Below are positions 29,289 to 30,943 of a DNA stretch of 64,000 nucleotides, piece after piece (the first letter of the stretch is position 1; each line of letters starts with the position of its first letter). A model generated the notes under the pieces. The model was not told the origin of the DNA. It was given only the letters and a program-made list of their open reading frames with translations, and searched no databases. A program made the translations under genes and the position numbers. The DNA is from an uncultured delta proteobacterium. Its GTDB lineage: Bacteria; Myxococcota_A; Polyangia; Fen-1088. The stretch lies in the NCBI GenBank assembly GCA_963796685.1, contig CAWCMR010000025.1, forward strand, positions 1,824,001-1,888,000, given 5' to 3'.

Positions 29289-29494
29289 TTGAGCTCATCT
29301 CGCGTAGCGTCTACCGCGTCCCGAGCGACCCGCTCAAGGTGCGGGGATTTCTTGCCGAGCTCGCGTGGGCAGCCGCCGAGCTTTGCTCGGCGCGAACCAG
29401 CGCGGGAAGGTTTGGAAACCCTTCCAGGGCCGCCGCCGGCCGAAGGCCCGGATCCTTCAGGCATGAAAAGGTAACAGCCCCTTGTATCTTACGG

Positions 29495-29760
29495 GGGACT
29501 GGCTCGCTCTCGCTCGCAGTCCCCCGGTCCCCCCTCGCTTCGCCCAGCAAAGCTGGGCTACGCTCGCCCCCAAAGGCGAAGGAGCACGACGAGATTCAAC
29601 GGCACGACAGACCGATGCCCCTCAGGTCACAAAGACCGTGGGTGAGCGAGGGTCGTCGTGTCGACTTTCACAAGCAGCCCGAACAGATGAGAGGGCCTCG
29701 AGCCCGCATACTCCGCAAGGCTGGGCATACCAAGAGCAGAAGTCCTTCGCGAAAGGAGCC
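29495..29760 (+). ncRNA. Predicted bridge RNA
   Basis: Target loop GATGCCCCT (29614-22) and GGGTGAG (29640-46); donor loop ACAGATG (29683-89) and ATAC (29708-11); each has enclosing stems. Ends approximate. Confidence 0.82.
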
Positions 29761-29761
29761 C

Positions 29762-30712
29762 GTGACACCAACAGCTGACACATTCGTAGGTATCGACGTC
29801 TCCAAGGCCACGCTCGACGTCCATGTCTTGCCGGCCAAAAGAGCCTGGTCCACCCCCAATCAAGACAACACGGTGCGCGCTCTTTGCAAAGAGTTGGCCG
29901 CCCTGAACGTCACCCTCATCGTTCTTGAGGCCACCGGTGGACTCGAACGACGCGTGCTTGCGGCGCTCCTCGCTGCCAACCTGCCCGCTGTCGTCGTCAA
30001 CCCCAGACGCGTTCGCGACTTCGCCAAGGCCAACGGCTGTCTCGCGAAGACCGATGCCCTGGACGCCGCCATGATCGCTCTTTTCGCCGAACGAATACGG
30101 CCACCCGTCCGCCCGCCTGTCGACGCAGAGACCCAGGAGCTTGCCGCCCTTCTCGCCAGGCGCAGGCAGGTGGTCGACATGATCACTGCCGAGAAAAACC
30201 GTCTCAGCGCTGACCCTCCCTCCAAGCGCGTGCAGAGGGCCATCCGCAGGACCATCTCCTACCTCGAAAAGCAGCTCGACGAGGTGGACAACGACATCGA
30301 CACGGCCATCGGCAATTCCTCGGTCTGGAAAGCCAAGGACGACATCATCCAAAGCGTTCCAGGAGCTGGCCCCGTCCTCTCTCGCACCATCCTGTCCCAT
30401 GCCCCTGAGACTGGAACCCTCAACCGCAAGCAGATCGCAGCCCTCATCGGTGTTGCTCCACTCAACCGGGACAGCGGCACCCTGCGCGGCCGCCGCATCA
30501 TCTGGGGCGGCCGCACCGAAGTCCGCAACGTCCTCTACATGGCCACCCTAGCTGCCATACGCTTCAACCCAGTCATCGCCAGATTCCACGCTCGGCTAGT
30601 CGCCGCAGGAAAGCTCAAGAAGGTCGCCATCGTCGCCTGTATGCACAAGCTGCTCACCATCCTCAACGCCATGTTGCGCTCTAACTCGCGCTGGCAAACC
30701 ACGGAGATTTGA
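29762..30712 (+). CDS. IS110 family recombinase (DEDD)
   Basis: [22 protein letters not shown] and [17 protein letters not shown] before GTG. Confidence 0.96.
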
Positions 30713-30714
30713 CC

Positions 30715-30720
30715 TTGACT
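30715..30720 (+). promoter_or_regulatory. -35 box of the circle-junction promoter
   Basis: TTGACT; circularisation places it 17 bp from TATCTT (29485-90). Confidence 0.75.
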
Positions 30721-30943
30721 AGGAACACAGATGCTCACCCGCCTCGCTGCGCTCGGCGACCTCTCCCCGCTACGCGGGGCGAGGTGTTTTCAGGTCAGGG
30801 TTTCCATGTCAACCGTCTGAAAAGATCGAGATCTCGGTTGAATTGGCACGTGTGCAGGACTACTCTGCCCTCGTCCGTGCCGTCGCATTCGTGAAAGAAA
30901 GAACAGCCGGATTCACGCGGAGATCTCCCCAGGAGTTGGCACC

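Follow-up and report, generated by a model that had tools for sequence, protein, structure and literature searches.

IS621 of Escherichia coli (PDB 8wt6) is an IS110-group insertion sequence (IS) whose recombinase works with a bridge RNA. As set out in the available part of Durrant et al. (PMC11208160), the bottom strand is the partner of the left guides of this RNA and the top strand that of the right guides, each pairing takes in the core, and the right donor guide pairs discontiguously. ISPpu9 and ISPpu10 of Pseudomonas putida, as the accessible text presents them, are multi-copy IS110 elements that reside in repetitive extragenic sequences and yield modular or partial products. Here we describe an element comparable to both in a 64,000-nucleotide window (G000:C25:1824001-1888000) of the 7.3-Mb assembly of an uncultured delta proteobacterium (G000), together with its copies in two sister genomes, G001 and the same-genus G002. 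The element occupies positions 29483-30735 of the window and is very probably an IS110-group insertion sequence that is autonomous and has the mode of action of IS621. Judged by its sequence, it is a further representative of the IS110/IS621 bridge-RNA type, a type that is itself already known. The part of the analysis that goes beyond a first-pass annotation of this DNA, and that is most worth following, is the pattern of the left-end stubs that the element has left behind.

Ends of the element and its recombinase

Identity to the other copies ends exactly at 29483 and 30735 (plus strand), which gives an element of 1253 bp with one CT core at the right end included. The first-pass annotation had assigned it to 29395-30810; its other coordinates hold, but this span is too wide and takes in both halves of the interrupted repeat. 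The repeat resembles a repetitive extragenic palindrome or a miniature inverted-repeat transposable element (REP/MITE-like). Its left half lies at 29373-29482 and its right half at 30736-30835, both on the plus strand, and the left and right flanks match 123 and 213 places in the genome, respectively. The left target ACAGCCC (29474-29480) and the core CT (29481-29482) are situated inside the left repeat half and are followed by the right donor half-site TGTAT (29483-29487) and a putative -10 hexamer, TATCTT (29485-29490). At the other end, a putative -35 hexamer, TTGACT (30715-30720), the left donor ACAGATG (30727-30733) and the second CT core (30734-30735) precede the right target CACCC (30736-30740). 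Re-reading of both junctions gave the letters first annotated, ACAGCCC-CT then TGTAT (29474-29487) on the left and ACAGATG-CT then CACCC (30727-30740) on the right. A start of the element at position 141, with positions 1-140 as a separate unit, was considered and dropped: the orthologues used start at TGTAT with the -10 hexamer, three of them (L019, L020, L086) also carry the same 5' module as the window element, and a circle of positions 141-1253 would be without the right donor site.

The sole long sense open reading frame (ORF) of the element begins with GTG at 29762, preceded by AAAGGAG, and ends at 30712 on the plus strand. The encoded recombinase of 316 aa possesses an N-terminal RuvC-like DEDD domain (Pfam PF01548, DEDD_Tnp_IS110, E 2.7e-23) and a C-terminal Tnp domain with Ser-Gly (Pfam PF02371, Transposase_20, E 9.6e-17), and it scores 212.7 bits against the NCBIfam equivalog NF033542, 'IS110 family RNA-guided transposase' (cutoff 140). 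Among solved structures only two are matched, both over residues 8-308: the ISCro4 transposase (PDB 9t56, E 2.9e-31), the best match and known to us by its entry title, and IS621 (8wt6, E 1.2e-26, 97 bits). The active site of IS621 consists of D11, E60, D102, D105 and S241, according to the available part of Hiraizumi et al. (PMC11208158). In the alignment D12, E56, D98 and D101 of the window protein stand opposite D11, E60, D102 and D105, and S238-G239 opposite S241-G242, so that this two-domain DEDD plus Ser recombinase shares all five catalytic residues with IS621. The first-pass label 'IS621-like' is apt for the architecture; 'orthologue' in the sense of close orthology does not stand, the protein being a distant relative (phmmer E 1.2e-26).

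The predicted bridge RNA and its guides

The leader upstream of the gene is 279 nt long and begins with an extra module of two hairpins (element positions 3-90; 29485-29572, plus strand), which is absent from the shorter-leader orthologues; the left end of IS621 is given as 191 bp in the available part of PMC11208160. Two stem-loops follow on the same strand. The target-binding stem-loop (29601-29662) has a basal stem at 29601-13/29650-62, with pairs in 11 of its 13 positions, and a distal hairpin at 29625-37, and between them it encloses the putative left target guide GAUGCCCCU (29614-22) and right target guide (GU)GGGUGAG (29638-46). In the DNA, GATGCCCCT (29614-29622) and GGGTGAG (29640-29646) bracket the hairpin GGTC-ACAAA-GACC (29625-29637). 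The segment GGGUGAG (29640-46), on the 3' side of the target internal loop, is the reverse complement of CTCACCC. The string GATGCCCCTCA occurs once in the window, where 0.00 occurrences are expected. The donor-binding stem-loop (29677-29726) has a basal stem at 29677-80/29723-26 and a distal hairpin at 29693-29705, GGGC-CTCGA-GCCC, bracketed in the DNA by ACAGATG (29683-29689) and ATAC (29708-29711). Its putative left donor guide is ACAGAUG (29683-89), and its right donor guide appears to be split into AUAC (29708-11) and CAAG (29716-19), which are jointly complementary to CT-TGTAT. The letters and positions of the guides in the first-pass annotation are borne out, except that ATAC does not make up the whole right donor guide: 4 nt downstream of it comes CAAG, which is invariant and complementary to the core plus TG. 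The leader as predicted precedes the gene and has one loop for the target and one for the donor, left guides in the sense of the top strand, right guides complementary to it, a CT core and a discontiguous right donor guide; it fits the four-guide scheme of Durrant et al. (PMC11208160), as far as the available part of that paper describes it.

The structure was examined in related elements. From 80 related loci fetched, the bridge-RNA region of 19 elements with 40-68% protein identity was aligned, the left ends of the orthologues being placed by the pattern TGTAT. RNAalifold finds both helices of the target loop, basal and distal, and the basal one of the donor loop, whose distal helix was added to the consensus structure by hand. 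Standard pairs fill 87.1% of the cells, compared with 71.5 +/- 1.3 after shuffling (0/500 shuffles reach the real value) and 32-42% when the partners are slid by 1-3 columns. Changes on both sides of a pair, that is, compensatory changes, occur in 16 of the 23 pairs over the 19 orthologues, and in 12 of the 15 pairs of helices 1 and 2.

The guides themselves vary together with the sequences that they are predicted to read. On the donor side, all 20 anchored elements have the same variable triplet in the left donor guide as at their right end, with the states ATG, ACG, TTG, TCG and CCG (L021, which is without the loop anchor, was excluded); the right donor site is invariant among the orthologues and therefore gives no covariation. 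On the target side, 15 elements with both flanks were compared, after exclusion of L025, L038, L070 and L075, in which a flank is cut by the contig end. When the target loop of an element is compared with its own left target and core, the longest exact match has a mean length of 5.5 nt, and the targets of other elements give 3.1 nt; for the core and right target the corresponding means are 6.7 nt with its own and 2.9 nt with those of others. The summed match is 182, and permutation of guides and flanks gives 95.8 +/- 10.1, with 0 of 20000 permutations reaching 182. For example, the guides of L018, CGGCCU and GGGAGAG, stand beside the target CGGCCT|CTCCC, and those of L080, UUCGUCCU and UCCCUCAG, beside the target TTCGTCCT|GAGGGA. 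In the window element the matches are 6 nt on the left (GCCCCU) and 7 nt on the right. The compensatory stem changes, the covariation of guides with flanks and the aligned catalytic residues together uphold the IS621 bridge-RNA architecture with a CT core that the first-pass annotation had proposed.

The same covariation bears on another explanation, in which an IS110 transposon would choose CCCCT|CACCC through recognition of the repeat or its structure by the protein, and the complementarities of the leader would be incidental. Most of the insertions do lie in structured repeats, only 6 of the 9 letters of the left guide match, and a stem-loop encoded by the target is described as an extra layer of specificity for ISPpu10 in the accessible part of 10.64898/2026.03.19.712850. 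Incidental complementarity is difficult to reconcile with guides that follow their flanks over 15 orthologues with different targets, in a way that none of the 20000 permutations reproduces, or with the use of three repeat types and of a G001 site (L137) that shares the motif alone (see below). We regard this explanation as most improbable.

An Rfam scan of the window found no curated bridge-RNA family. Its only match was the Xanthomonadaceae sRNA sX15 (RF02234) on the minus strand of 29590-29741, with 29.4 bits and E 0.022, below the gathering threshold of 55, so that the window does not count as a member of that family in Rfam's terms. The same model scores 147-149 bits in three orthologues from Xanthomonas/Stenotrophomonas (L088:1009-1166, L090:1009-1166 and L091:64-222), just upstream of the IS110 recombinase, and 107 bits in a fourth match that is cut by the contig end (L096:1-133); all are on the minus strand. 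sX15 differs from a bridge RNA in that the strand of the model is opposite to that of the recombinase gene. It covers the bridge-RNA region of those elements, and either the RNA is genuinely antisense or the model was built from the opposite strand.

Copies, insertion sites and mobility

BLAST of the element against the G000 assembly gave 16 hits. They include seven full copies, six of them intact at 100% identity and one split at position 55/56 by a 2075-bp insert, and seven remnants, every one of which starts at element position 1. The site CCCCT|CACCC is found at 7/7 full copies of G000, 7/7 fetched full copies of G002 and the single full copy of G001 (15/15), and a CT core stands at both junctions in all 15 full copies with both flanks read. 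The expectation of the first-pass annotation that other copies would sit in such repeats, and not at unrelated sequences, thus agrees with the three genomes. Of the 14 left ends in G000, 13 are preceded by CCCCT and one by CTCCT. The target as a whole reads (G)CCCCT|CACCC, with natural left pairing of 6/9; it differs from the native IS621 target, given as 11 bp with two letters beyond the core in the available part of PMC11208160, in that five right-target letters are common to all 15 copies.

The copies of G000 lie in at least three types of repeat, with the flanks ...GACAGCCCCT|CACCCGCCTCGC..., ...GCTGGCCCCT|CACCCTAGCCC... and ...AAAGCCCCT|CACCCTGTCCC..., which indicates that the shared factor is the motif and not a single repeat. 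The single full copy of G001 (L137) is inserted in CCCCCT|CACCCAG; its flanks are unlike the repeats at the other copies, and only the motif is common. The motif is abundant. G000 contains 183 CCCCTCACCC sites, 121 of them with G before, and ~55 and ~18, respectively, are expected from base composition. Four are present in the window (36537, 44340 on the minus strand, 44376 and 61068) against 0.20 expected, a number that 0 of 100 shuffles reach. Three of these are unoccupied sites at 36537-36546 (plus strand), 44340-44349 (minus strand) and 44376-44385 (plus strand), all of which the first-pass annotation had already listed. The fourth belongs to an uninterrupted copy of the repeat at 60989-61157 (plus strand), first placed at about 60985-61155, in which the matches of the left and right flanks abut at 61072/61073. 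This copy reads GGCAGCCCCT|CACCCGCC, has its CT core at 61071-61072 and represents an empty target.

When the ends of the element are joined by computation, they form TTGACT-17 bp-TATCTT, which agrees with the consensus in 9 of 12 positions. The sequence is as the first-pass annotation gave it for the circle, and its role as a promoter is predicted. A scan of the linear DNA (29300-30900) for sigma-70-like promoters found 0 sites. Among 21 elements (the window element and 20 orthologues), the same register, with the -35 hexamer in the right end, the -10 hexamer from the third base of the left end and a 17-nt spacer, is the best-scoring one in 16, and in L023 it is perfect (TTGACA-17-TATAAT). 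The predicted promoter agrees with the junction promoter described for IS621 in the available part of PMC11208160. ISPpu9 differs in this respect: its circles form no junction promoter, according to the accessible part of PMC12288879.

A cycle taken over from IS621 may be proposed. The element would excise as a circle, and the joining of its ends would build the promoter TTGACT-17-TATCTT, from which the bridge RNA and the recombinase would be transcribed. Of the two loops of the RNA, one would pair with the circle junction and the other with the motif (G)CCCCT|CACCC, which is present here in at least three types of repeat, and the recombinase would exchange strands after CT, the crossover core.

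Movement appears to have been recent. The sets of occupied sites differ among G000, G001 and G002, and the locus of G002 that is orthologous to the window site is without the element; together with the identical copies, these observations argue for recent movement. The 'probably active' of the first-pass annotation is to be read in the sense of recent mobility, for which the identical copies and the polymorphism of sites are the grounds. It may also be supposed that the copies are recent but now immobile and owe their spread to duplications of the repeats around them. The contigs of the public runs revealed neither a circle nor an RNA, and the sister genomes are polymorphic for the repeats as well. 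This reading is very unlikely, because the ORF and its catalytic residues are intact, the copies are 100% identical in flanking repeats that differ in type and sequence, and the sister genomes have independent sets of sites.

Several observations weigh against an element that works like IS621. No joint of right end to left end was found in four public runs, examined as assembled contigs, and the circle-junction string is absent from the G000 assembly. Only 9 of the 21 junction promoters pass the strict criteria of the scan. The first three letters of the left guide (GAU) fit no natural target of the window element or its sisters, and pairing is limited to 6/9. The minimum-free-energy fold of the whole leader surpasses shuffled sequences only modestly (z of -2.2, with 5 of 200 shuffles as good), and this single-sequence fold pairs the two target guides with each other instead of leaving them open. 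As for the public runs, the joints listed as 'skips 1265/1270' have other letters between their sides and are paralogous empty repeats, not products of excision; the differences in depth reflect repeats common to many organisms. Metatranscriptome contigs from two libraries overlap parts of the leader and the gene (e.g., 29557-29706 and 29555-29853), an overlap that is not proof of transcription. Apart from the junction promoter, which is predicted, every sequence-level feature of IS110-group bridge systems that was looked for is found in this element.

The surroundings of the element contain further mobile layers. The 2075-bp insert is not a second IS but a group II intron with a reverse-transcriptase ORF (YADD), of which there are 11 full copies. 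It interrupts two left ends of the element, antisense and at position 55/56 (G000:C11:75849-77923 and G000:C25:1543397-1545471; the equivalent window position is 29537/29538). In the 10 copies with their 5' flank on the contig, the intron lies 0-9 nt after a GC-rich hairpin, and two of these hairpins belong to the repeat family targeted by the IS. The G002 locus orthologous to the window site (L159, G002:C1:30500-30950) has the palindrome GGAAACCCTTCCAGGGTTTCC alone. The inner part of the repeat that carries the IS target (~113 bp; 29430-29482 plus 30736-30795 in the window) is thus an insertion in its own right, for which the sister genomes are polymorphic. The mobile layers are therefore nested: the palindrome, the inner repeat, the IS and, in other copies, the intron. 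In the 5' module of the leader (29485-29572), judged by eye, the stems covary and the loops are conserved (GGCTCGCTxxCGCTCGC and CCCCTCGCTyCGC); Rfam gave no match to it. Within G000 the module is confined to left ends of the IS (14 places), and in related genera it is found free-standing, sometimes in tandem, without a full-length match to the element (L105-L123), for example with 13 matches in G012 and 11 in G020.

Left-end stubs and the guide-coding DNA

The remnants that retain only the left end tend to stop at one place. In the three genomes 19 of 25 such remnants end at element positions 136-142, the end of GATGCCCCT, which is the DNA coding for the left target guide; the probability of this clustering under a uniform null is ~1e-37 (binomial, n = 26; the final count is 25, which gives the same order). 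Four of the seven remnants of G000 end at 138-142. In G002 the first 178 nt of the element are matched 30 times: 15 of the matches end at 136-141, 8 extend past 140, 2 end at 79 and 87, and the other 5 comprise an internal fragment and four units of positions 3-89 in tandem. The DNA of the G002 stubs is 97-100% identical to the element in 14 cases out of 15 and 90% identical in one. Their flanks differ, and those of L154 and L155 are unlike the main repeat, and it follows that the stubs are not one old amplified copy of a repeat.

At 6 of the 19 stub junctions GATGCCCCT is intact. It is followed by the flank CACCC in G000 (L008, L010) and by position 1 of a full copy in two G002 cases (L125 and L126, whose left flanks are identical and which are possibly a single locus); in L146 position 1 of a second stub comes next, forming a tandem array, and in L149 the last 57 bp of the element. 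The arrays of stub and full copy and of stub and stub in G002 have the exact joint GATGCCCCT|TGTAT. The other 13 junctions are altered at the core by 1-4 nt or more and have no intact CT: four read GATGCCC|ACCC, two GATGC|TCACCCC (L151, L155), and seven are further single variants. Outside the junctions of elements and stubs, the right half of the main repeat in G000 retains an intact CCCCTCACCC at 50 of 56 anchors, with six variants. Lesions of the core are thus enriched at stubs (13/19 vs 6/56, Fisher p 3e-6), the two sets coming partly from different genomes.

Two miniature derivatives and some very short traces are also present. L129 (G001:C2:825781-825953) consists of positions 1-125 and the last 43 bp of the element, and L149 (G002:C43:75161-75355) of positions 1-141 and the last 57 bp, both in CCCCT|CACCC. 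They keep both ends without the guide loops or the gene, and are candidates for trans-mobilisation. The short traces lie beside right halves of the repeat, at G000:C5:354702 (minus strand), G000:C25:1597156 (plus strand) and G000:C25:706137 (plus strand); in two of them CACCC is preceded by the terminal 11-15 letters of the stub, and the third has ACAGATGCT|CACCC and nothing else of the element.

How might the stubs arise? The left target guide reads like the target, and the guide gene is therefore itself a left half-site with a CT core, matching the guide at 9/9 letters where natural repeats match at 6/9. In addition, the CA after the CT of the guide (29614-24, GATGCCC-CT-CA) also fits the right target. 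The stubs of 140 bp could then be produced by the recombinase acting at the guide-coding DNA as a mimic of its target, a proposal to which we give close to an even chance. A fuller version, a little less probable than an even chance, is that the element recombines at its own guide and sheds a 140-bp unit, which would be reused as a 9/9 landing pad and later disarmed by deletions of the CT core. By one route, a circle would insert into the guide gene of a resident copy, the resulting 1.1-kb tandem would collapse to a stub followed by a full copy, an array of which the form is seen, and excision of the full copy would leave the stub. By another, a partial unit reaching from the left terminus to the guide gene would be cut out and inserted alone. 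Stubs with an intact 9/9 site would be preferred to natural repeats as landing pads, and one may speculate that the frequent core deletions mark the survivors of repeated attack.

Recombination at the guide DNA has to be weighed against two other origins. According to one, the stubs arose without the recombinase, by simple deletion through slippage or homologous exchange, with the short GATGC..CT repeats in the guide DNA and at the right end as partners. The two GATGC|TCACCCC junctions look as though the crossover had occurred inside GATGC, and 13 of the 19 junctions are inexact; on the other hand, a homology of 5 nt is short for 19 independent events at a single place, and six junctions keep GATGCCCCT intact, in three cases (L125, L126, L146) followed by position 1, which is the signature of an insertion. 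Plain deletion is an unlikely source. According to the other, the 140-bp unit is a hitch-hiking partial element that is excised as a partial circle and inserted alone into CCCCT|CACCC sites. The excess of stubs over full-length left ends in G002 (15 vs 8), the tandem array L146, and the near-identity of 14 of the 15 G002 stubs in differing flanks favor such a unit, as do the partial circles that reuse the RD-side terminus and the tandem non-coding units beside IS110 elements that are described in the available part of 10.64898/2026.08.14.744561. The right end of the unit, GATGCCC-CT, would however mismatch the left donor guide ACAGAUG, a double-stranded circle of 140 bp would be very small, and the junction string GATGCCCCT-TGTAT is absent from G000, though present in the arrays of G002. 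This origin is doubtful, if somewhat less so than plain deletion.

Recombination at the guide-coding DNA meets difficulties of its own. Only two of the five right-target letters fit at the mimic (CAGGT vs CACCC), 13 of the 19 junctions are inexact as described above, and the nested intermediate that it predicts was not seen. Moreover, excision of IS621 in a cell-free system needs recognition by the donor arm and not by the target arm, as reported in the available part of 10.64898/2026.08.31.748434, and direct excision at the mimic is therefore disfavored. In L023, from a metagenome-assembled genome of Geomonas, the right-target letters also follow the CT of the guide; that genome has one copy only.

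Literature searches on IS110 self-targeting and on truncated left-end remnants, and the accessible parts of PMC12288879 and 10.64898/2026.08.14.744561, yielded no account in which guide-coding DNA serves as a site of recombination, which does not prove its absence. The internal endpoints of partial circles are not linked to guide-coding DNA in the available part of the latter source. The modules of ISPpu9 are bounded by duplicated end boxes, according to the accessible part of PMC12288879, and the partial unit described here differs in ending at the guide-coding DNA.

Taken by itself, the window's genome presents the target, the donor, the four guides, the predicted junction promoter and both empty and occupied sites of an IS110 bridge element, and its recent history can be followed in three closely related genomes; this is useful but expected. 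If recombination at the guide DNA is real, this DNA would be an intrinsic self-target of natural bridge elements, and self-targeting would explain the partial circles and the tandem non-coding units at IS110 loci. It would also be a warning for the design of bridge editors carried in cis, with the bridge RNA gene on the donor. For RNA-guided transposons in general, it would mean a built-in cost of self-targeting or a brake on copy number, comparable to self-targeting by CRISPR.

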